Part shown: positions 2,280-16,895 of the stretch, one piece after another
Layout: the number at the start of each line of letters is the position of its first letter
Position numbering within the stretch: position 1 is the stretch's first letter
Origin: an uncultured Candidatus Saccharibacteria bacterium
Lineage (GTDB): Bacteria; Patescibacteriota; Dojkabacteria; JAHIVN01
NCBI GenBank assembly: GCA_964572065.1
Contig: CAZNER010000030.1
Coordinates: 1 to 16,895 of the forward strand
DNA: 16,895 nt
Direction of reading: 5' to 3'
Position numbers and translations under genes: made by a program
The notes under the pieces: generated by a model
What the model was told of the DNA's origin: nothing
What the model saw: only the letters and a program-made list of their open reading frames with translations
Databases searched by the model: none

Positions 2280-2765
2280 ATGACAAGTCCAGATACACAA
2301 CAAGTAGTTACAGGAGAACAAGAAGCAGTTGATGTTTCACCAAAGAGACAAATAGAAGCATTATTTGTTTCTCAAGAAAGCGGTTTAGTTGCACCTGAGA
2401 TAATTGTCAGTGAAGGTGTTAATGACTACACTATAATTGTTGTAAAACATATAGATGTTAATACAGGTGTAGTAAATTGGAAATTTATTTCAGTTTTTTT
2501 ATATAGTGAAGACAGTGGTTTTGCGGTAACTCTATATACAACAGGTACTTATAGTACAATAGGTATACGAGGTACTGATATAGTAACTAATCCGGAAGTA
2601 GGAAGACAATTGGTTTACAATGGTGTTGATCTAGAGACTGGTATGCAGTATGTAGGAAAAGTGATGAATGTTGTTATTGAAGATGTTTTGACATTAGATA
2701 AAGTTATTGAAGGATATAGAGAAATCAAAAGAAGAATAAAAAATGGAGAATTTGATAAGAATTGA
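2280..2765 (+). CDS. hypothetical protein, small-protein family member C (161 aa)
   Basis: ORF track entry, ATG start, TGA stop, own promoter. Similarity to members A and B as described for those features. No known domain recognised. Confidence 0.7.
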   Translation: MTSPDTQQVVTGEQEAVDVSPKRQIEALFVSQESGLVAPEIIVSEGVNDYTIIVVKHIDVNTGVVNWKFISVFLYSEDSGFAVTLYTTGTYSTIGIRGTDIVTNPEVGRQLVYNGVDLETGMQYVGKVMNVVIEDVLTLDKVIEGYREIKRRIKNGEFDKN

Positions 2766-2837
2766 ATCTTTTTAGGTAAAGAGTTTGTGATATAGATACA
2801 ATATTAATTCCCGTTTAGAACACAAGTTGTATTAATA

Positions 2838-2921
2838 TTCCATTGTCAGTAATGGAACCAACAAATAGCGTTATAGGCGGATCCGCCTTGACTCACAAGG
2901 CGAGGCAGGTAATGGAATCAG
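2838..2921. repeat. family E GC-rich structured element, copy 1
   Basis: About 48% GC (hand count 40/84). Hairpin ttccatt-gtcagt-aatggaa (2838-2857) is followed by ccaac..atagcgtt. The GC hairpin cgccttg-actca-caaggcg (2884-2902) competes with the palindrome ggcggatccgcc (2876-2887). Then comes aggcgaggcag. The direct repeat gtaatggaacca (2849-2860) / gtaatggaatca (2909-2920) is 11/12 identical. The same ordered blocks occur at 16192-16306. Confidence 0.6.
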
Positions 2922-2938
2922 TCTTTAAGTGCTAAATT

Positions 2939-2958
2939 ATGCGATCAGGAGATCGCAT
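2939..2958 (-). terminator. hairpin immediately after the tyrS stop (putative terminator)
   Basis: atgcgatc-agga-gatcgcat has an 8-bp stem and starts 1 nt after the TAG stop (2960-2962). On the minus strand only a weak AAUUUA tract follows. A near-identical hairpin is at 6733-6752 in the opposite orientation. Confidence 0.5.
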
Positions 2959-2959
2959 T

Positions 2960-4249
2960 CTACTTAATTCTAACAAATTTTCTTTTGCCAACTTTAACGA
3001 CATTCCCCTTCTCCAGTTTAATTTTTTGTTCGAAGTCTTTTACTTTTTTACCTTCTATCTCTATTCCTCCTTGTTTTATTAGCCGTTTTGCTTCAGCATT
3101 ACTTGCTATTATTCCTTTTTTAACAAGTTCTTTCACTAACTCAAGTGCTGTTAATTCCTTTTTACACTTGATTTCTTTCATTTCATCAGGAGTCTCTCCT
3201 TTTTGTACAGTTTTTTCAAAATGTTCTTGAGCTTTTCGAGATATTTCTTCATCATTGAGCATCTTAACAATTTCAAATGCGAGCTGTTTTTTTAACAGCA
3301 TTTGTTTTCCTGATTTAATGCCTTTTTTGACTGTATTTAAGTCAATGTTAGTTAGTAATTCAAAACTTTCTAAAAGTTTTTCATCTGTCCATGACATAAT
3401 TTTTCCATACATATCTTCAGGAGCATCGAGAGATGAGATTGCATTACCAGTTGTTTTTCCCATTTTTTCTCCCTTTGTGTCAGTTAGGAGTTTTAATGTT
3501 AGAACAAACTTGTTTTTATTAGTGAGTTCTCTTGAAAGAGTCCTTCCTGTCAACATATTAAAGGTTTGATCTGAGCCTCCGACTTCAAGATCAACCTGCA
3601 TTACAGTACTATCAAATCCCTGCATTAACGGATACATTGTTTCATGAAGTCTTATTGGTTTCTCCTCTTTTAGTCTTGTTCTGAACATATCGTGGGATAA
3701 TATATTTTGAAGTGTAATTTTTCCCATTATCTGCAGCCAATCTTCTAATGTTACTTTTGATAACCAATCATAATTATTTAGAATCGTAATAGGATTATCC
3801 TTCCAGTCGAAATTCAATATTTTTGATGCTGTTGATTTATAATCCTTAAAGTTGTTCCAAACTTGTTGTTTTGTGAGAGGTTCGCGTGTGTATTGTTTGT
3901 CCGGATCTCCTATCATAGCTGTAAATCCGCCAATAAGAAATATCACTTGGTGTCCAAGTTTTTGAAATTGTGCTAATTTTCTCATCCAGATGAAATGCCC
4001 AACATGAAGGAAGTTTGCTGTAGGATCAATTCCTGTATAAAGTTTAATCCTTTTTCCTGACAGAAGAAGTTTTTTTAGATCCTTTTGTTTAGGAAAAATA
4101 TCTTTAACTCCTCGGGTTAATGCTTCATCGATTTTGTCAGGATCTGTAACAACATCCATTTGAGGTTCTTTTATAGATACCTTGTCAATATATTTATTCC
4201 ATATTTTTATTTCATTTGCTTTTTTTGATTTATTATTTTTCTTTTTCAT
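2960..4249 (-). CDS. tyrS: tyrosine--tRNA ligase
   Basis: Class I signatures are present: HIGH-type motif (LHVGH), KMSKS-type motif (KMGKT), a GIDPTA..LHVGH context and a C-terminal S4-like domain (..AEAKRLIKQGGIEIEGKKV). The N-terminus has a Lys-rich extension of about 30 aa. ATG at 4159 (MDVVTDP..) is an alternative start. Confidence 0.95.
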   Translation of the reverse strand: MKKKNNKSKKANEIKIWNKYIDKVSIKEPQMDVVTDPDKIDEALTRGVKDIFPKQKDLKKLLLSGKRIKLYTGIDPTANFLHVGHFIWMRKLAQFQKLGHQVIFLIGGFTAMIGDPDKQYTREPLTKQQVWNNFKDYKSTASKILNFDWKDNPITILNNYDWLSKVTLEDWLQIMGKITLQNILSHDMFRTRLKEEKPIRLHETMYPLMQGFDSTVMQVDLEVGGSDQTFNMLTGRTLSRELTNKNKFVLTLKLLTDTKGEKMGKTTGNAISSLDAPEDMYGKIMSWTDEKLLESFELLTNIDLNTVKKGIKSGKQMLLKKQLAFEIVKMLNDEEISRKAQEHFEKTVQKGETPDEMKEIKCKKELTALELVKELVKKGIIASNAEAKRLIKQGGIEIEGKKVKDFEQKIKLEKGNVVKVGKRKFVRIK

Positions 4250-6355: not shown

Positions 6356-6520
6356 AGATAAAATGTTTGTTAGTAAAGATTAGAAAAAATTTTCTTCGCA
6401 TAATGGTTTTATTACATGTCTCGATTTACGAGTTTATGAAATTATACATTTTAATTAATGTAATGATTGTTATTAAATATATCCAGTTTATTATTAAATT
6501 ATATTTAAGTTTCTTCCTTT

Positions 6521-6624
6521 GTACTTTTGGCCGCAAAAGTACCAAAACTCGTGGGGTTGATTAAGTCCCACAGTAAACAATCTAATTGCCGTGAACATCC
6601 GGACGTAATCAACCCCACACCCCG
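6521..6624. repeat. family H composite structured element, copy 2
   Basis: Hairpin a is gtactttt / ggccgc / aaaagtac (6521-6542), 8 bp with a 6-nt loop. An 8-nt spacer follows. Hairpin b is gtggggttgatta (6551-6563) paired with taatcaaccccac (6606-6618), a 13-bp perfect stem closing a 42-nt loop, extendable by gtcc/ggac. The C-tract is then reiterated as a-cccc-g (6619-6624). Loop positions 9-19 read agtaaacaatc here and agtgaacaaac in copy 1, 9/11 identical in the same register. Confidence 0.6.
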
Positions 6625-6732
6625 ATGATATAACAATTATCAATCAGATTTTTTAACAAGAAAATATATAAAATATCCCGAACTATAATAATTTATTAGA
6701 CATTTTTTATAAACAAAAAGAGGAAGATAAAA

Positions 6733-6752
6733 AGGAATTAGAATGCGATTTC
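6733..6752 (+). terminator. hairpin, near-identical inverted copy of the tyrS terminator hairpin
   Basis: atgcgatt-tcct-gatcgcat is 8 bp including one U-G pair, followed by AAAAUAGUAUUU. The 29-nt string tagaatgcgatttcctgatcgcataaaat (6729-6757) matches the minus strand at 2962-2934 with 3 mismatches. Confidence 0.45.
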
Positions 6753-6779
6753 CTGATCGCATAAAATAGTATTTAAGTA

Positions 6780-6801
6780 ATGCGGTCTGAGACCGTATTT
6801 T
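6780..6801 (+). terminator. intrinsic terminator-like hairpin
   Basis: atgcggtc-tga-gaccgtat is 8 bp including one G-U pair, and is followed directly by UUU (A). Confidence 0.5.
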
Positions 6802-6818
6802 ACAGTGGTTTTATAAAG

Positions 6819-6847
6819 TTCACATCTTTCTCACTTTGTATTAAAAT
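6819..6847 (+). promoter_or_regulatory. sigma70-type promoter for the hydrolase gene
   Basis: TTCACA (6819-6824), a 17-nt spacer, TAAAAT (6842-6847), then 23 nt to ATG 6871. Confidence 0.45.
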
Positions 6848-6870
6848 GTGATTTTATATTAGTATTAGAT

Positions 6871-7695
6871 ATGAAAAAAGTAATTTTAGATAAAGCTAAA
6901 ATAGGTTATATTCATAAAGGTAAAAAGGGAAAACCTAAAATTTTGATGCTTCATGGTCTTTTTTCAAATTGCAGGTATTTTGATGAGACAATTAGTTTTA
7001 TTAAGAATGATTTTGAGATTATAGCCCCTGATTTTCCAGGTTTTGGCTTGTCTGATAAGTTGAAAACTGTATCTCATACTCTAGAATCCTATTCAGAATC
7101 AATAATACAATTATGTGATCACCTAGATTTTAAACCTTTTAATTTAATTGGAGCTTCACTTGGAGGTATGGTTGGGATAAAACTTGCTAGTGATTATGAT
7201 GAATATATTAGTAAAGTAATAATTCAAGCTGCCCCTTGGAATAAATCATGTATAAATATGAGAATTATTGAAAAAACTTTTGATTTTGCATCAAGAATGG
7301 AAAAATTGGTTAATGTAGTAGATGGTTTAAAAAATAGAATAAAAAAAGAAACTCTTACAAAAACCTTGAAGATGTTTAATAAGCATTATTATTCAATTGA
7401 AGAAAGAAACGGCTGTATATCATATAGTTTTAAAAGAATGAATCTCAAAGCTACATCACAGATTTGGAATAATTTAAAAGATGCCGAACTTTCTGAAAAA
7501 GCTAAAAGGATAGAAAAGAAGACTTTAGTTATTGCAGGAGATCATGATGAAATTGTGTTTCCTGAAAAGACGAAGATGTTAGCTGAATTTATAAAAGATT
7601 CAGAGTTCAGATTAATCAAAGGAATTGATTGTACACATGCATTATTTTTTGATCATCCAGACAAAATGGCTAGGCTGATTAAAAGTTTCTTTTAG
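6871..7695 (+). CDS. alpha/beta-fold hydrolase
   Basis: 274 aa with an HG oxyanion motif (MLHGLFSN), the nucleophile elbow GASLGG (G.S.G), an acid in AGDHDEIV and a His in CTHALFFDHP. This is a complete Ser-Asp-His triad pattern. Substrate unknown. Confidence 0.85.
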   Translation: MKKVILDKAKIGYIHKGKKGKPKILMLHGLFSNCRYFDETISFIKNDFEIIAPDFPGFGLSDKLKTVSHTLESYSESIIQLCDHLDFKPFNLIGASLGGMVGIKLASDYDEYISKVIIQAAPWNKSCINMRIIEKTFDFASRMEKLVNVVDGLKNRIKKETLTKTLKMFNKHYYSIEERNGCISYSFKRMNLKATSQIWNNLKDAELSEKAKRIEKKTLVIAGDHDEIVFPEKTKMLAEFIKDSEFRLIKGIDCTHALFFDHPDKMARLIKSFF

Positions 7696-8162
7696 TAATC
7701 AATTTTGTCTGATTTGTTTTTCCAAATTTTGAAAAGTTCTAGACATTCCTTATGGCAGAAATCTGGAATTGTTTTAAGTTTACGTTCCTCTTGGGCTTTT
7801 TTAAATTCATCATAGATGAATTGGTCATCAAAATCTATTTCAGCTGCTTCATATCTTGTACAACCATAGTATAATTTATCAATTCTAGCCCAATAAATTG
7901 CTGCAAGGCACATAGGACATGGTTCACAGGTAGAATAAATTTCGCAGCCGTCTAATTTAAAAGAATTGAGCTTTTTACAAGCCTTTCTTATAGCATTTAT
8001 CTCAGCATGAGCCGTAGGATCATTATCTTTTACTACAGTATTATTACCAAATGAAATTAATTTATCATTTTTAACAATGCAGGCTCCAAATGGTCCCTCT
8101 CCTACATTCTGTAGTCCTTTTTTGGCTTTCTTTATAGCTTGAAACATATATTTTTTATCCAT
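7692..8162 (-). CDS. guaD: guanine deaminase (CDA-fold, GuaD type)
   Basis: 156 aa with the zinc motifs HAE and PCPMC. The GPFGA.IVK, NDPTAHAE..AIRKACK, Y.(S/T)CEPCPMC..AIYWAR and FDD.FIY.E blocks match my recollection of Bacillus subtilis GuaD, which is also 156 aa. A TadA-like tRNA deaminase is less likely because of the FDD.FIY tail. Confidence 0.8.
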   Translation of the reverse strand: MDKKYMFQAIKKAKKGLQNVGEGPFGACIVKNDKLISFGNNTVVKDNDPTAHAEINAIRKACKKLNSFKLDGCEIYSTCEPCPMCLAAIYWARIDKLYYGCTRYEAAEIDFDDQFIYDEFKKAQEERKLKTIPDFCHKECLELFKIWKNKSDKIDY

Positions 8163-8179
8163 AATTATTTATTAAAATT

Positions 8180-10297
8180 TTAAAATCTTTTTTTATGCAT
8201 TATCCAAACTCCATTCCAGTTCTTTGTCTTTGTAATATTTGAATTTTCCAGTCTGTTTAAGAAAACTTTTACTGCAGGGTCCTTTTTTTCAAGTTTTCTG
8301 AAATCTTTTTCTGCTTGAGTCCATTTTCCATTTCTGTATTTTTTTAATGCATTTTCAAATTTATTGATATCATTAATTCTAACTTCACAGGTTTTGTATT
8401 GTCCAATGAGTTCATATATTTTTACTGGTGTCTTTCTTCCTTTTACTTGGACAGTATCCAATTCTCTAAAAACCAAGTTTTTCTTTCTGGGATTTTTAGG
8501 ATTGTATATTTTATTGTTAAATTTGAGTTGTTTATAAGTTGAATCTGAAATAATAATCGGAACTTTATATAATTTTGTAAGTTCTTCAAGCCTGCTGCCA
8601 AGATTTACACTATCGCCTAATACAGTATAGCTGAATTTTTCTTCAGATCCAATATTTCCGACTACCATTGATCCTGTATTAATTCCTATTCCCATATTGA
8701 AACTCTTTTTGTTTATCGTTTCTTCCTTTTTCCACTTGTTTAATTCTTTCATCATATTAATTGCAGTAATGCATGCATTATAAGCATGGTCTTTATCCTT
8801 AATTGGTGCTCCCCAAAATGCCATAATTTCATCTCCAATAAATTTATCAATATAGCCGTCATTGTCAAGAATTACATTTGACATGCTATTAAGGTATTTA
8901 TTAGTAAGATTAACCAATTTCTTAGCGGACATTTTTTCTGCTAATGAGGTGAATTTCCTAATATCTGAAAACAATACAGTCATTACTTTTGTTTCTCCGC
9001 CTAAGGAAAGTTTATCCTGGTCTTTAATGATTTCGTTTAGTACTTTTCTAGAAACATAGTGTTCAAATGCACCTCTAATATATAATTCTGATTGGGTATT
9101 GATATAGAAATTTATAACTAACTGGGTAATCCAAGCAGTGATACCTGCAAGAGGAAGATAAATTATATCCATTATCATTCCATTTGAGAACTGCCATATA
9201 GCAAATAGGATGTAAATATTAATAACTCCAAAGGTTATTATAGAACCAAATAGTGATTTCTGGAATCTCATTATAAAAACTATAATTGCTGAAACTATAA
9301 ATATGCCTAATATAACGTATTCGGGATCTTCACGATAAATAAAATTGCCGTTTTTTAATGTATATAAAGCGTTTGCCATTATTTCAGCTGAAGACATAAA
9401 TGATGAGCTTGTTGGCGTCAATTTATAATCCTGTGCTGTTTTTGCTGTTACACCTACGATAACGAGCTTGTCTTTCAGCGACTCAGGTATGACATCATAT
9501 TCTAAAAAATCTGCAACAGAAATTGTTTGAATTGTTCCAGGCGGACCTGCATAATTAATTATTAAATCATTTCCATTCTCTAATGGAATACCCGATGTAC
9601 CTGTTTCGCAGGGGTTTTTATATGACCTGCCTAGATATTTTTCATACATAACAAGAGGAAAACTTTTTCTGCAGCTGTCATCTCTATCATATTCATATAA
9701 TGGAGTTGATCTTATTTTTCCGTCTTTATCACTTCTTAGGTTTACAAAACCAAGTGTTGTGTTCTCGCTTTGCAGTTCTTCAGTTGGTTCAACATATCCT
9801 GACTGCCAGCTTGGATTTATAGCTGATGATAATATAACTGGTACGTCAGAATTAAATGATTCTGCTAAGGCTTGATCTTTGTCTGAGGGTTCGAAATAGG
9901 TGATGTTCCATCCAACTATTTTTACATTGAAATAGTTTAATTTTTCCTGTATTTTTGCCTGAATGTCCCTGTCCCATGGCCACCTGCCGTACTCTTGGAG
10001 GCTCTTGTCGTCTATTGCTATGATTAAAATTTCTGGATCACTTGTGTTTTTGTATAAAAGAGTGTCTGCAATAGAATCCTGAAGCCTGTCAAGCAAGTCG
10101 TAGTTGAAGAAAACAAGTATGATTAAGAAGACTATAACTGCAGTTAATACCTGCATAAACATAGGACCAAGTTTGCTGATTTTTTGTAGTAATCCTTGAT
10201 TTTTTTTTGCTTTAACAGGTCTTTTTTTGGGCTGTTTTTTTATAAAACTTAAAATATTCTTTTTCACATTGTGTATATTATAATGCAATTCTAACAA
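8180..10297 (-). CDS. CHASE2 sensor domain class III adenylate cyclase
   Basis: Domain order: Lys-rich N-terminus, one TM segment, an extracytoplasmic region of about 280 aa typical of CHASE2, three TM segments, then the cyclase homology domain. Catalytic residues are present: metal-binding Asp in LFSDIRKFT and IGDE, substrate Lys in IDKFIGD paired with Thr in SYTVLGDSVN (adenylate-type), and the Asn/Arg pair in VNLGSRLE. The C-terminal helical tail ends WNGVW. The track start is TTG at 10297. GTG at 10267 or ATG at 10162 are alternatives. Confidence 0.88.
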   Translation of the reverse strand: MLELHYNIHNVKKNILSFIKKQPKKRPVKAKKNQGLLQKISKLGPMFMQVLTAVIVFLIILVFFNYDLLDRLQDSIADTLLYKNTSDPEILIIAIDDKSLQEYGRWPWDRDIQAKIQEKLNYFNVKIVGWNITYFEPSDKDQALAESFNSDVPVILSSAINPSWQSGYVEPTEELQSENTTLGFVNLRSDKDGKIRSTPLYEYDRDDSCRKSFPLVMYEKYLGRSYKNPCETGTSGIPLENGNDLIINYAGPPGTIQTISVADFLEYDVIPESLKDKLVIVGVTAKTAQDYKLTPTSSSFMSSAEIMANALYTLKNGNFIYREDPEYVILGIFIVSAIIVFIMRFQKSLFGSIITFGVINIYILFAIWQFSNGMIMDIIYLPLAGITAWITQLVINFYINTQSELYIRGAFEHYVSRKVLNEIIKDQDKLSLGGETKVMTVLFSDIRKFTSLAEKMSAKKLVNLTNKYLNSMSNVILDNDGYIDKFIGDEIMAFWGAPIKDKDHAYNACITAINMMKELNKWKKEETINKKSFNMGIGINTGSMVVGNIGSEEKFSYTVLGDSVNLGSRLEELTKLYKVPIIISDSTYKQLKFNNKIYNPKNPRKKNLVFRELDTVQVKGRKTPVKIYELIGQYKTCEVRINDINKFENALKKYRNGKWTQAEKDFRKLEKKDPAVKVFLNRLENSNITKTKNWNGVWIMHKKRF

Positions 10298-13800: not shown

Positions 13801-16074
13801 CAATATTACTGGTGTTGTTAGATAGTTTGTAGTAAGAGGATAATTATCCTGAGCGTAAGGTGCAGTCATAGTAAAGTTGTCTATCTGGTATTGAAGTTGA
13901 GTGTCTCCTACTCCATCACCATCTAAGTCTATTCCTGTGTAATCATCCCAACTATTTCCTTCGGATCCATCATCCCAAACTGATTCTGATCTATCGTCAA
14001 TAGCATTTCTATCATTATCATAGAAACTATTATGATGTGCAGTAATTGGTGAACTGTAGTAAGCAGGAGGATAATGAAGATTCCATAAACCGACTTCATT
14101 ATCAAATATATTGTTGTTAGTAATAGCCACATTTAATCCGATTTCAAAGGATAATACTCCTACTGCAGAATTAGAATCTGGTATAAAGAAATTATTGCTT
14201 ATATAGTTTCCAGTAATTTGACAATTCTGGATATCTGATATTTGTATTCCATTTTGAGATATTAGATCGGTTGGACCAATTCCTGTTATAGTATTACCTG
14301 CTATAATAGAGTTGATAGAATCACTTAAAGTTACGCCATTTTTTTGATAGTTATTTATTTGACAGCTTAAAAGATTGACATTATATGTTATTCCATCATT
14401 TGCTCCGCTATAAAAAGCTGCCCCATGGCGTTCACTGCTAGTTGGCGTGTCTTTTATATTTATTATTCCGCAGTTTTGGACTGTTCCTCCAGCATTTCTA
14501 TAAGCAATTCCATAGAAGCGGTTATTTGCGTTTCCTTTTCCAGCACCATTAATAGTAAAATCCTCAATAATAACATTGTTTGCATTATTTACATAAACAA
14601 TTGGATAATTTGAGTAAGTGGTTCCACTAATTAAAGATGTCCATTTACTAACTAAATTGTCTGGGCTTGTTACTGTTGTAGAAGCGGTTCCAGCACCTGA
14701 TAGTGTTAGGTTCTTTTGTATATCCAGTTGTTCTTCATAATTTCCTTCTGCAACATAAACAGTTCCATCTTCTAAAACAGCATCTATCCCTTCCTGTATA
14801 GTTGCGAAGCCGTTGTAACCAAAATATCTTCCTGAACCTAAATCATCTCCATTACTATATCCTATCCAATCATCATCTACCCAAACTTCACTTGGAGACT
14901 CAGTTGACTGAATCATTACTGCATCAGCTGCAAGAAGACCGTCTGGATCTTCGTTGCTATTTTCAAGTATTACAAAATAAGTAGAGCCAGTTGCATAATT
15001 ATATGTTCCTAATTGATACCAGCCACCGCTGCCTGAAGTTTGATCTACCTGTATAGGTAAAATTGTACTTCCTCCTTGATAAGTAACAGTGTAATTAACG
15101 GGATTTCCATGAGAAGTATCTCCTGGCCACCGTGCATAAATTTCATATTCACCATTTTCAATTACACTAAATTGCCACTGAGCTCTTCTTCCTACTGTTG
15201 TATCTGATAAAAGATAATTCCCGTTATAACTTGATGCATTATCTGTTAAAGTCCATGTACCACCTGATGTAGTACATTCATCATCTTCATTATCTATAAT
15301 CATTTGCAGGTTTGAAACTGGAGGTGGTGATGGATTATCTACAACGACATAGGTAGTAAGATGATCTATTCCTGAAGCTTTTACGTAGTTACTTGTATTT
15401 TCTTCACCTGAAATATCGTTAAAGTTTGTATTGTCATTAGAATATTTAATTTCAAGTTCTTTGTTTGAATAATCGGCAGGTATAGGCATGTAAATAGTAA
15501 ATTCAAACTCGCCGTTTTGCATATCTGATGTTATGTCATAAGCATTACCGATTATATTTGCATTTCCTATTTTATCTCCGATATCGACTTTTTCGATATT
15601 TAATTTACTGCTTTCTGTTGGAAGTTTTGTAAATACTATTTTTAGATTGTCAAATTCATCTATAGTATATTCGAAATCTTGGACAATATTTTCATTTGTA
15701 TAATGTCTATTCCCATCTACTGACCAAACTGAAGGTTTTGCCGCTAAATTAGATTTTTCTTCATCATTAGAATTATCTTCCTCAGTTTCATTATTAATTT
15801 CATCATTTGTCTCGGAGTTTTCCTGTTCATCTTCGGTTTCTTGCTCTTCTTCATCATTATAGGGTGATGGAGTTGTATTTAATTCTTCTTGCTCATTTTC
15901 TACAGTTTCTTCTTCTTCAAATTCATCCTCATATAAGTCTGGTGAAGGTATAGTTTTGTCCTTTAATGCGAATATTGATAAAGGAAGTACTGCATTAAAA
16001 AGCAATAATATAATTACCGAAGTTGCTAATGTTTTTGATACAGAATTGGTTTTTTTCTGTGAAAGTGAAAACAT
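10864..16074 (-). CDS. giant cell-surface protein (about 1736 aa from ATG 16074)
   Basis: Domain order, minus strand, N to C (coordinates approximate):
- Signal/anchor: MFSLSQKKTNSVSKTLATSVIILLLFNAVLPLSIFA.
- Acidic low-complexity region, 15745-15955.
- Carbohydrate-binding-like beta-sandwich, 14905-15290 (W..W..Y.IYARWP...Y.V).
- Right-handed parallel beta-helix, PbH1/NosD-like repeats, 13990-14890 (NV.I..F.I.G.., N..I.GN.I).
- Ig/FN3-like modules, then two PKD domains, 11390-11935 (DYGDG...HTY...G.Y.V).
- SdrD-B/Cna-B-like domain, 11070-11275 (ISGYVF.D.N.N..D..E.G..N..V).
- C-terminal TM segment plus a KNKKSK tail.
The start is moved from the track's 16188 because a consensus promoter lies inside that extension. 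Confidence 0.9.
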   Translation of the reverse strand: MFSLSQKKTNSVSKTLATSVIILLLFNAVLPLSIFALKDKTIPSPDLYEDEFEEEETVENEQEELNTTPSPYNDEEEQETEDEQENSETNDEINNETEEDNSNDEEKSNLAAKPSVWSVDGNRHYTNENIVQDFEYTIDEFDNLKIVFTKLPTESSKLNIEKVDIGDKIGNANIIGNAYDITSDMQNGEFEFTIYMPIPADYSNKELEIKYSNDNTNFNDISGEENTSNYVKASGIDHLTTYVVVDNPSPPPVSNLQMIIDNEDDECTTSGGTWTLTDNASSYNGNYLLSDTTVGRRAQWQFSVIENGEYEIYARWPGDTSHGNPVNYTVTYQGGSTILPIQVDQTSGSGGWYQLGTYNYATGSTYFVILENSNEDPDGLLAADAVMIQSTESPSEVWVDDDWIGYSNGDDLGSGRYFGYNGFATIQEGIDAVLEDGTVYVAEGNYEEQLDIQKNLTLSGAGTASTTVTSPDNLVSKWTSLISGTTYSNYPIVYVNNANNVIIEDFTINGAGKGNANNRFYGIAYRNAGGTVQNCGIINIKDTPTSSERHGAAFYSGANDGITYNVNLLSCQINNYQKNGVTLSDSINSIIAGNTITGIGPTDLISQNGIQISDIQNCQITGNYISNNFFIPDSNSAVGVLSFEIGLNVAITNNNIFDNEVGLWNLHYPPAYYSSPITAHHNSFYDNDRNAIDDRSESVWDDGSEGNSWDDYTGIDLDGDGVGDTQLQYQIDNFTMTAPYAQDNYPLTTNYLTTPVILAPPNTAFYPTSASEVDWTDSDGTFPSFEYQFEAYGDTAYSNLVWDSSGWITNSEISTLGIPDGMYYIRVRARDSEGNESYWSNGVSNTYVIVLDTNPPVTTLTSPADDTYWNTDIPIQGTTEDYSTLLYVDIYYRNTGTIDPWTLIETLTDSDGINNPFDWTYNWNPDLMPASNPPHEGSYDIRAIATDILGHIESDGHATNITYDITDPVPVITQPNNNEVVNGTINITGTITELHLDNYELSIHPVSDPSDITFIASGGNTNVSADFNTTILPDGEYVLNLEAVDRATNSAEDSINIIIDNTHPTVEITYPIQFYLSDIFTIRGTVEDDNPYSYELIIEDGIGNYVEGTGLILEPNSFNNQPIMSWDTTGINGLHTITLTAQDEAGNQNDDIITVIIDNIDPDANITNPHDGDTVGGTISINGNIIDDNFDEYTLTIYPNGDPGNIVETFNGISQSFTHEFNTLTYISQDPNFGDGVYTIELYALDLAGHEDTTTINITVDNTKPFIEPELEDSNYNEGDNIEVDITGKDDISLDQLCYQIVEIDGGVFTCLSGNGVEYTWTLELTTLYPQMLQNGVYQLEYYLLDSSTPANQSDSDPDTTGDQNYITTFTVNNVKPNVIPPTDQEIIEGQSTNKLTASFTDPSYIEGSGNDPDDAPWTVTIDYGDGTSIKTIAVMNEPGEFSIPSHTYIYNGIYTVTIKVAESEDGSNESGIAIFKVKVEDKQPTVSISAYPSNKVYAWVPITLTASVEGGNEPYTYEWSGICQGSNPQTTIKARPGIYTCTIKVTDVDGDKVTETMTLTFYPHIIDTADDQDETDESNDNDTDESENVLSIVDCGKKSKISGYVFIDDNKNNNKDEDEKGLNNIQIEVYFDESENGDRIASAKTNNEGYWETELCQGEYSLTINLEDLPDNAELEWGNYIFITVEENENINNINFPVIKYGSFLEQFNVLWCILPFVFILIVSIFLYFKNKKSK
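11960..13521 (-). repeat. five tandem Ig-like modules (about 96-112 aa each) inside the giant gene
   Basis: Module boundaries are marked by D-x-(T/I/N)-x-P linkers: DTNPP (about 13521), DITDP (about 13185), DNTHP (about 12897), DNIDP (about 12603), DNTKP (about 12294) and NNVKP (about 11960). Recurring internal motifs are I.G...D.N...Y.L and DG.Y.(L/I)...A.D.AGN. The copies are diverged at nucleotide level. Confidence 0.7.
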
Positions 16075-16113
16075 ATTTGTTAAAGCAAATATTTTAATGA
16101 GGCAGCTATAGAT

Positions 16114-16142
16114 ATTATATATTAGTATAGGATAAATATCAA
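16114..16142 (-). promoter_or_regulatory. sigma70-type promoter of the giant surface protein gene
   Basis: On the minus strand: TTGATA (16137-16142), a 17-nt spacer, TATAAT (16114-16119), then a 39-nt leader to ATG 16074. Confidence 0.6.
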
Positions 16143-16191
16143 TAAGAGATATGCACTTTAAATATATATTGATGGTATAGATTTGCATTAA

Positions 16192-16306
16192 GGCTCCATT
16201 ACGGATAATGGAGCCAACGACTACCTGCTATGATACGCATAGCGTTGCCTGCTAGCAACGATAACATAGCTTTTCGGGCTAGCAGGCGAGCAGATAATTG
16301 AGCCAG
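16192..16306. repeat. family E GC-rich structured element, copy 2
   Basis: About 50% GC (hand count 58/115). Hairpin ggctccatt-acggat-aatggagcc (16192-16215, 9 bp) is followed by an extra hairpin gctatg-atacg-catagc (16227-16243). The GC hairpin gcctgctagc / gctagcaggc (16247-16287) is 10 bp with a 21-nt loop. Then comes gagcag. The direct repeat ataatggagcca (16205-16216) / ataattgagcca (16294-16305) is 11/12 identical. Block order is the same as at 2838-2921. Confidence 0.6.
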
Positions 16307-16335
16307 CAAGTTTATCAGTTATTATTATTTTTATT

Positions 16336-16713
16336 CTAATCCGTAAATGGGGCTGGTGGAGGTGGAGATGAATTATCTGTACTATTATCTGAGTTATCTG
16401 ATGAATCTGAATTATAGTGGTCGTCTTCTAAGTAGTCTGAGTCATCAGATGTGCTGTCTGAATTTTGTGGAGAGCCATTAGAATATTCATTTGTCAAATC
16501 ATTATTATCTGTGGATTCTGGCAGTTTTTCTCCATTAGGTTCTTCGTAATTATCTTGAATAAATAAAACATTATCTTTTTCTTCTTGTTTTATGAAATTA
16601 CCGTTATTATAGGTTTTTTGAGGATTAATTATTAGTAAGAAGATCAAATTAACAAGAAGTAACAAGAGGATGATAATTATTGCTATGCGTTTATCTATTG
16701 ACAGATGATTCAT
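16336..16713 (-). CDS. small membrane-anchored protein with an acidic Ser/Asp/Asn-rich tail (about 125 aa)
   Basis: ATG at 16713 (MNHLSIDKR..) is preferred over the track's GTG at 16731, because a TTGACA-17-GATAAT promoter ends 10 nt upstream of that ATG. The TM anchor is IAIIIILLLLLVNLIFLLII. The tail is acidic and low-complexity, ending SSPPPPAPFTD. TAG stop. Confidence 0.7.
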   Translation of the reverse strand: MNHLSIDKRIAIIIILLLLLVNLIFLLIINPQKTYNNGNFIKQEEKDNVLFIQDNYEEPNGEKLPESTDNNDLTNEYSNGSPQNSDSTSDDSDYLEDDHYNSDSSDNSDNSTDNSSPPPPAPFTD

Positions 16714-16723
16714 AGTACACTGT

Positions 16724-16752
16724 ATTATCACATAGAAATGTTAATATGTCAA
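16724..16752 (-). promoter_or_regulatory. sigma70-type promoter (TG-extended -10), near-leaderless geometry
   Basis: On the minus strand: TTGACA (16747-16752), a 17-nt spacer, then GATAAT (16724-16729) preceded by TGT. Only 10 nt separate it from ATG 16713. Confidence 0.55.
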
Positions 16753-16895
16753 TGAAATAGACATGTATTGACTATATAATTTGAACAATATAGTTATATT
16801 ATTGCTGTATTAGTATTTAGTAATATGTTAATTTAGGAAAAAGTCCTATAATCTGGTTATTGAGCGTATCTATAGGTTTTTTGATTATAATAAAA

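Follow-up and report, generated by a model that had tools for sequence, protein, structure and literature searches.

Two short GC-rich islands stand out in the window, i.e. the whole stretch of 16,895 nucleotides of Dojkabacteria DNA that was analyzed, and they raise the question of what kind of element they represent. The GC content of the window is 31.2%, against 47.6% at 2838-2921 and 50.4% at 16192-16306, and these two loci are the only ones in the window with intergenic 60-nt segments of at least 48% GC. The first-pass annotation had described both as copies of a single structured element, built of the same ordered blocks and enclosed by a copy-specific 12-nt direct repeat, and had seen in this arrangement the signature of a small GC-rich core that inserted into, or duplicated, a hairpin target. 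Should the islands be regarded as a novel RNA, as a miniature mobile element, or as members of a class of repeats that is already known?

Layout and genomic setting of the two copies

The features described before were all recovered at their coordinates (Table 1), namely the first hairpin, the CCAAC motif, the block ATAGCGTT, the GC-rich hairpin, the AGGCGAG(G)CAG block and the repeats, and they follow each other in the same order in both copies. The likeness begins 9 nt further to the left than had been given, with TTGyATTAA at 2827-2835 and 16183-16191. With this motif included, copy 1 covers 2827-2921 and copy 2 covers 16183-16307. The hairpin with its flanks is referred to below as REP-1, and model R1 is the covariance model that describes it.

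Table 1. Coordinates of the features of both copies and of their surroundings (positions of the window)
Feature	Position	Strand	Details
Copy 1, REP-1 unit	2827..2862	-	37.4 bits with model R1, the copy itself being in the seed alignment; on the + strand: flank TTGTATTAA, stem ttccatt, loop gtcagt, aatggaa, tail CCAAC
Copy 1, stem 1	2838-2844 and 2851-2857		ttccatt/aatggaa; CCAAC at 2858-2862
Copy 1, block in common with copy 2	2865-2872	.	ATAGCGTT
Copy 1, palindrome	2876-2887	.	GGCGGATCCGCC; shares CGCC (2884-2887) with the GC hairpin
Copy 1, GC module	2883..2910	.	CCGCCTTG-actcacaa-GGCGAGGCAGGT
Copy 1, GC hairpin	2884-2890 and 2896-2902		CGCCTTG/CAAGGCG
Copy 1, shared block	2898-2908		AGGCGAGGCAG, AGGCGAG(G)CAG type
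Copy 1, extra half REP-1	2909..2921	-	3' arm and tail, on the + strand gTAATGGAATCAG
Copy 1, direct repeats	2849-2860 and 2909-2920		gtaatggaacca / gtaatggaatca, 11/12 identical
tyrS	2960..4249	-	copy 1 starts 38 nt past the stop codon
Promoter-like site	16114..16142	-	TTGATA-17-TATAAT; between copy 2 and the probable surface-protein start, ATG 16074
Copy 2, intact REP-1	16183..16218	-	53.1 bits with model R1; TTGCATTAA, stem GGCTCCATT, loop acggat, AATGGAGCC, tail AAC
Copy 2, stem 1	16192-16200 and 16207-16215		ggctccatt/aatggagcc
Copy 2, small hairpin	16227-16243		GCTATG/CATAGC; overlaps ATAGCGTT at 16239-16246
Copy 2, GC hairpin	16247-16256 and 16278-16287		gcctgctagc/gctagcaggc (GCCTGCTAGC/GCTAGCAGGC)
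Copy 2, shared block	16284-16293		AGGCGAGCAG, after the GC hairpin
Copy 2, extra half REP-1	16294..16307	-	variant tail, ATAATTGAGCCAGC
Copy 2, direct repeats	16205-16216 and 16294-16305		ataatggagcca / ataattgagcca, 11/12 identical
125-aa gene	16336..16713	-	no family assigned; copy 2 starts 29 nt past the stop codon

The module formed by the hairpin and its flank is clearly beyond chance, as model R1 scores it at 53 and 37 bits. The same holds for the copy-specific direct repeats, the members of which lie about 60-90 nt apart in both copies; the left repeat of each pair is the 3' arm of REP-1. The likeness of the cores is far less pronounced. In a local alignment of the core of copy 1 to that of copy 2, 238 of 2000 shuffles did as well, which is not significant, and upon chaining of the ordered blocks the score was reached by 78 of 3000 shuffles, which is marginal (p about 0.026). 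Moreover, the cores are unequal in length (46 versus 75 nt) and differ in internal layout. The block ATAGCGTT has two exact matches in the window, one per copy. In copy 1 the outer stem of REP-1 is degenerate (TATTCC where GGCTCC is canonical), and the palindrome GGCGGATCCGCC indeed has CGCC in common with the 5' arm of the GC hairpin, in line with the two competing folds that had been proposed. In copy 2 the heptamer CCTGCTA is present twice, at 16224 and 16248. The z-score of the fold is about -5 for copy 2 on both strands, and is weak for copy 1 (-1.7 on the + and -2.4 on the - strand). The contigs of the organism from five samples are 100% identical to one another, and therefore they carry no signal of population variation. 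The assignment of this low-GC genome to the Candidatus Dojkabacteria (Patescibacteria) agrees with the best named matches of its TyrS.

Copy 1 is located between tyrS and a convergent open reading frame (ORF) of 161 aa, and when the repeat is read in the canonical, tag-first direction, it lies on the same strand as tyrS. Copy 2 is flanked by two genes on the - strand and has the same orientation to the 125-aa gene as copy 1 has to tyrS. No promoter-like or terminator-like sites were found in the flanks of copy 1, and there is no intrinsic terminator on either strand at 2600-3100 or at 15900-16895. A separate 8-bp hairpin (ATGCGATC-agga-GATCGCAT, at 2939-2958) follows directly after the tyrS stop codon, before copy 1, and has no T run.

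We also considered copy 2 as the - strand translational leader of a 1774-aa surface-protein gene, the called start of which consists of GGAG, 5 nt and the ATG at 16188. This reading was rejected, because TTGyATTAA is the generic 5' flank of REP-1, the promoter-like site lies 3' of that ATG and a signal-peptide-like start is found at Met39. The position of the promoter-like site puts copy 2 upstream of the promoter and not within a leader, and, together with the start at Met39, makes the first 38 codons look like promoter DNA. Judged from the sequence, the called start is probably wrong, and the true start is probably ATG 16074, i.e. Met39.

The first hairpin as a dispersed REP-like repeat

An exact-pattern scan of metagenome contigs yielded 32 loci, 29 of them low in GC, and the covariance model R1 was built from the metagenome loci. 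The pattern is that of a dispersed REP-like palindrome, which reads TTGyATTAA-hairpin-AAC on the + strand and, tag first, 5'-GTTGG-GGCTCCAyT-loop-ArTGGAGCC-TTAATrCAA on the - strand, with a stem of 9 bp and a loop of 6 nt. Model R1 retrieved 55 full REP-1 units from about 284 kb of those REP-1-bearing contigs. The great majority (51/55) is intergenic, and about half (27/55) lies no more than 200 nt from an inverted partner, as in a REPIN. REP-1 units also lie in frame within two long ORFs, one of 417 aa (L018, 1343-1420) and one of 636 aa (L029, about 10100-10190, - strand), where they code for the repeated peptides GSTQENGAN and GDENGAN.

The stem of the family is well preserved. Over 44 distinct units it is paired in 93.7% of the cells, against 21-44% in controls that were slid along the alignment; four of the nine pairs have changed on both sides (24 cells), and none of 500 shuffles reached the covariation score. 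The mismatches comprise 20 C.A/A.C cells versus 3 G.T cells, although cells are not independent events. Since a C.A mismatch becomes a G.T wobble on the complement, the strand that carries GTTGG is the likelier folding strand. In described REPs the tag, which is unpaired, is likewise found at the 5' foot (PMC6006769, PMC3733652). In REP-1 the (nearly) invariant AAC/CCAAC columns correspond to GTTGG on the folding strand, which is neither GTAG nor CGTC.

Judged by sequence, hairpin 1 most likely belongs to a REP-type (repetitive extragenic palindrome) family that is associated with genes for RAYT, the REP-associated tyrosine transposase. This changes the meaning of several earlier observations. 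The statement that the element matches no known RNA family stands as far as Rfam is concerned, but hairpin 1 is most likely a REP-type repeat rather than an RNA family of its own. The proposed constraint on structure holds for hairpin 1, the stem of which covaries throughout the family. Between the two copies by themselves, the compensatory change comes down to a single pair in stem 1 and a GC stem in which GCCT/AGGC is retained and the differences are indels, which is too slight a basis for such a claim.

In the source genome, a search with R1 with its filters switched off found two REP-1 units, both of them in the composites, in about 40 kb (the window plus the contigs L002/L049 and L045), which does not by itself make for a high copy number in this genome. 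One of these contigs, L045, contains a tyrosine integrase gene that adjoins tRNA-Ser(TGA) (7734-7822) in the region 6589-8290, which is about 2-4 kb past the right end of the window. Past the tRNA gene, three fragments of its 3' part recur, at about 7911, 8051 and 8211, and GAGAGAGGGATTCACATGCTCGCTTACTTCG has two copies, at about 4955 and 7600. By its sequence the arrangement suggests that integration at the tRNA gene was nested or serial.

RAYT genes beside REP-1 in relatives

The surroundings of tyrS could be compared with those in L006, the closest relative available (TyrS 79% identical), and in L007 (74%) and L008 (70%). The spacer downstream of tyrS in L006 contains two full and one partial REP-1 (TAAGGCTCCAyT-N6-ArTGGAGCC-AAC) and no GC core, and one of these units is 93% identical to the REP-1 of copy 2 over 30 nt. 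The empty sites that the first-pass annotation had proposed to look for, i.e. the hairpin without the GC core, thus exist in the orthologous spacer of L006 as well as in dozens of metagenome loci. Hairpin 1 therefore stands on its own, in the manner of a unit that was already there when the core joined it. Upstream of tyrS in L006 (2297-2326) lies a near-perfect palindrome, GTTGGTTCAAATC..GTTTGAACCAAC, that has GTTGG/CCAAC tags on both sides and a different stem.

The gene beside the REP-1 units of L006 is a fragment that matches the NCBIfam family REP_Tyr_transpos (E 1.6e-11). L007 has a full RAYT gene in the same slot (94.8 bits, cut-off 80), the product of which also matches Pfam Y1_Tnp (1e-6) and TnpArep in the PDB (4ER8, E 3e-4), and which has hairpins of its own on both sides, inverted and with a constant CCAGC(AA) tail. 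The same slot in L008 gives a weaker Y1 match. Among the matches listed, homologues of the L007 RAYT are annotated as RayT in other Patescibacteria and in Methylococcales, and one of the Patescibacteria homologues likewise has hairpins on its flanks. The L007 protein is 57-63% identical to RAYTs of the Methylococcales Methylomonas and Methylobacter (P0154, P0180, P0190, P0192, P0211). Such closeness is unexpected for distant phyla and may reflect horizontal transfer of the gene. No close full-length homologue of the L006 RAYT is present among the 120 matches listed.

A RAYT gene was not found in the window and its 23 kb of flanks (about 40 kb). The slot convergent with tyrS, where the three relatives have a RAYT or Y1 transposase, is occupied in the window by the 161-aa ORF (2280-2765, +), which has no Pfam or NCBIfam match. 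The possibility that this ORF is a degenerate RAYT was considered and dropped, as no similarity was found.

The GC core, the half REP and a second palindrome family

In L018, in L026 and twice in L029, a second 3' arm with its tail comes after a full REP-1, with no GC core in between. As the combination of a full and a half REP recurs without the core, the 12-nt repeat is by itself no sign of a target duplication. The CCAGC(AA) tail of the half REP-1 of copy 2 is also present in L041 and L007. Furthermore, some REP-1 units in L025, L026, L029 and L030 have a loop that carries a GC-rich insert.

The GC hairpin itself is best read, on the strength of the following resemblances, as a second palindromic repeat family. 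A GC-rich palindrome, CCTGCCTGCCGGCAGGCAGG and variants of it, here called type 2, is abundant in some of the contigs and has nine sites in the 13.5 kb of L041. At 6427-6471 of that contig, a type-2 palindrome is fused directly to the 5' arm of a REP-1, and both window copies show the two in this order at their right end. The L020 sequence at 1396-1418 reads CCGCCTTG-cc-GGCGAGGCAGGT, and thereby shares 8 + 12 identical, collinear bases with the GC module of copy 1. Given this match, the simplest reading of the AGGCGAG(G)CAG block is that of a right arm from a type-2 palindrome. In copy 2 the GC hairpin matches the type-2 arms (GCCTGC..GCAGGC) less well than in copy 1, and the block ATAGCGTT is explained by neither REP-1 nor type-2 modules. 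Type-2 palindromes occur in L041, L014, L020, L030, L035 and L042, and further small palindrome families are found in the same low-GC contigs: CCTCCCCTT..AAGGGGAGG, TCCGCCAGCTGGCGGA and GGAACGGGTTGCAAACCCGTTCC-CGCAA.

Searches for further copies and for other identities

Further composite copies were found neither in the genome and viral collections nor in the related contigs or the source-genome sequence of about 40 kb. The core pattern gave four chance matches to unrelated taxa in the genome collection, which does not include the source organism, and both the REP pattern and the core pattern gave zero matches in the viral collection. Searches with the core blocks, with short-word BLAST and with nhmmer in about 290 kb of REP-1-bearing relatives returned nothing below E 0.7 except for the type-2 palindrome match to L020. 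No Rfam family matched the window or 15 related loci at the gathering score, and at E <=10 there were chance-level matches elsewhere in the flanks only. A scan for tRNA and tmRNA found none.

Several other identities were considered and set aside. A decayed coding gene does not fit, since most frames of both elements contain stops, no reading frame is common to both beyond the REP part, and tblastn detected no RAYT remnants. As to an integron attC site, AACCAAC and AGCCAAC are each one base off RYYYAAC, and their strand has neither a GTTRRRY partner nor an array of cassettes. For retrons, DGRs and CRISPR the defining neighbours or motifs are absent.

Origin of the composite elements

We consider it probable that both loci are extragenic palindromic elements that derive from REPs and have a mosaic make-up. 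Read on the + strand, each would consist of a full REP-1, the ATAGCGTT spacer, a type-2-like GC palindrome with an enlarged loop, and half a REP-1; the 12-nt 'direct repeat' would then be the leftover half (arm and tag) of a second REP-1. REP-1 would have been spread by a RAYT (HUH/Y1) transposase that acts on the folded single strand, presumably the strand with the GTTGG tag, and the composite would have come about by juxtaposition or partial deletion of tandem units, followed by one duplication as a unit. The locations are familiar: REPs sit downstream of ORFs, between convergent or same-direction genes, they are interleaved with or inserted in other palindromes, and copies inside genes are on record (Di Nocera 2013, PMC3733652). 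Transcripts of tyrS and of the 125-aa gene that run through the copies would fold there into stable hairpins in their 3' untranslated regions (3'-UTRs), and an effect on mRNA stability or termination, if any, would be incidental. Both the mobilisation by RAYT on single-stranded DNA and any RNA-level effect of 3'-UTR hairpins we infer here from knowledge of the family (PMC3337134). The composite was probably duplicated once and is probably now decaying, considering the degenerate outer stem of copy 1 and the RAYT slot that is taken by another gene. The copies in the source genome are probably immobile relics, with little functional weight. Several observations speak against the mosaic reading: in the about 40 kb of source-genome sequence no RAYT gene was found and the REP-1 units number two, both composite, the tag is GTTG, the two halves are in direct and not in inverted orientation, and the GC hairpin of copy 2 matches the type-2 family weakly. 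In addition, decay alone is inadequate to account for the block AGGCGAG(G)CAG, which is kept exactly beside the half REP in both copies, and for the ATAGCGTT block.

In the model of the first-pass annotation, a GC-rich mobile core of about 46-75 nt, ending in AGGCGAG(G)CAG, would have been inserted into the 3' arm of REP-1 with a 12-nt target duplication, i.e. as a miniature element that targets REPs. In favour of this model, each copy has its own 11/12 repeat, equal to the 3' arm of REP-1, both cores close with the same block right against the right repeat, 'empty' REP-1 units exist in relatives, and GC-rich loop inserts occur in L025, L029, L030 and L026. Nevertheless, we regard such an insertion as unlikely. 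With two copies known, the likeness of the cores is marginal (p about 0.026), their lengths (46 and 75 nt) and layouts differ, and their ends (AC.../...GCAG) are not inverted repeats; in addition, half REPs stand beside full REPs without such a core, and the core blocks are absent from the about 290 kb of REP-1-bearing relatives and from the genome and viral collections. Transposition of the Y1 type (IS200/IS605) moreover leaves no target duplication, which argues against this origin of the repeat.

A functional structured RNA, either a 3'-UTR element or small RNA on the - strand or a small RNA on the + strand, with a two-state fold derived from a co-opted REP hairpin, would be in line with the low z-score of copy 2 (about -5), with the same orientation and similar distance of both copies past a - strand stop codon, and with the alternative pairings, as one arm pairs with the near or the far repeat in both copies and two local hairpins compete in copy 1. 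Di Nocera 2013 (PMC3733652) regards many REPs as transcribed sequences with a role at the RNA level. We nevertheless hold this to be very unlikely for the present copies: there is no Rfam match even at E <=10, the fold of copy 1 is marginal (z -1.7 and -2.4) and the copy has no flanking promoter-like or terminator-like sites, the fold scores are equal on both strands, as is the case for DNA palindromes, the core is absent from the orthologous spacer of L006 and from the other searched sequence, and the identical samples provide no population signal. No positive test favours either the insertion or the functional-RNA model. That the core is indeed a tiny element that invades the 3' arms of REPs with a 12-nt duplication, or that the layout is a co-opted two-state 3'-UTR RNA switch, therefore seems improbable to us; if true, a core that invades REP arms would parasitise what is itself a parasite, within a minimal genome. 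It is also very doubtful that the two composites were assembled independently from a common pool of palindromic modules, with shared blocks that are convergent or due to chance. The weak likeness of the cores, the differences between the stems and tails of REP-1 (TATTCC versus GGCTCC; TCAG versus CCAGC) and the mosaics with other junctions in relatives would agree with this, but five modules are in the same order in both copies, ATAGCGTT is found nowhere else in the window, AGGCGAG(G)CAG abuts the half REP in both, and the chained blocks reach a p of about 0.026. The mosaic reading, with a single duplication of the composite, remains the one that we prefer.

Implications and comparison with known systems

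Patescibacteria such as the Dojkabacteria have very small, streamlined genomes, in which repeated DNA is expected to be scarce. The findings point to a REP-type palindrome family in the Dojkabacteria lineage, with adjoining RAYT genes, inverted doublets, in-gene copies and type-2 mosaics. We found no earlier description of this family and no published description of REP/RAYT systems in Patescibacteria, although public annotation already names RayT genes there. For annotation this means that such islands are not to be called novel RNAs, and for gene calling that a REP-1 hairpin can supply a false Shine-Dalgarno sequence plus ATG, as it probably does for the 1774-aa gene. The repeats could be of use in strain typing and in tracking repeat dynamics in uncultured lineages.

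The relevant comparison is with the REP/REPIN-RAYT systems, i.e. REP-TnpArep of E. coli and the REPINs of Pseudomonas (Bertels & Rainey 2011, PMC3116915, PMC3337134; PMC3733652). Like REPs, the units are short imperfect palindromes (about 27 nt) that have a covarying stem and, at their 5' foot, an unpaired tag that is conserved within the family, and they are mostly extragenic, downstream of ORFs between convergent or same-direction genes, with occasional copies inside genes. Like REPIN-RAYT systems, they frequently form inverted doublets in relatives, and the closest relatives have a RAYT with such flanking hairpins. In contrast, the tag of REP-1 is GTTG(G) and not that of the described REP superfamilies (GTAG or CGTC), and the about 40 kb of the source genome hold two units and no RAYT that could be found. 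Unlike in the inverted doublets of REPINs, the full and the half unit of each window copy point in the same direction, on account of which neither copy is a REPIN, and a foreign GC palindrome separates them.

As extragenic composites of REP units and other short motifs or palindromes, the copies also resemble the BIMEs of E. coli and the mosaic regions of Neisseria. In BIMEs the orientation of the REPs alternates and the linker motifs are defined, whereas here the REP parts are direct, one of the two has been truncated, and a GC hairpin of which two instances are known serves as the linker. A REP inside another palindrome has a precedent in T. roseum, where GTAG-23 lies within CCGSSCC..GGSSCGG palindromes (PMC3733652, section 7). 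With MITEs, including those derived from IS200/IS605, the copies share their small size, their non-coding and hairpin-rich nature, the short flanking direct repeat and the presence of more than one copy. Unlike in MITEs, there are no terminal inverted repeats on the core, the left hairpin bears no relation to the right one, and the 'duplication' belongs to an adjacent repeat unit.

Finally, the Rickettsia palindromic elements (RPEs), which are about 100-150 nt long and have no known transposase, are likewise found in reduced genomes, and some members lie in frame in ORFs, as REP-1 does in L018 and L029. Nevertheless, there is no sequence relationship, and the window copies are intergenic. What is new here are the GTTG tag and the mosaic layout of a full plus a half unit, both of which are unusual; the kind of element, most likely a REP, is one that was already known.
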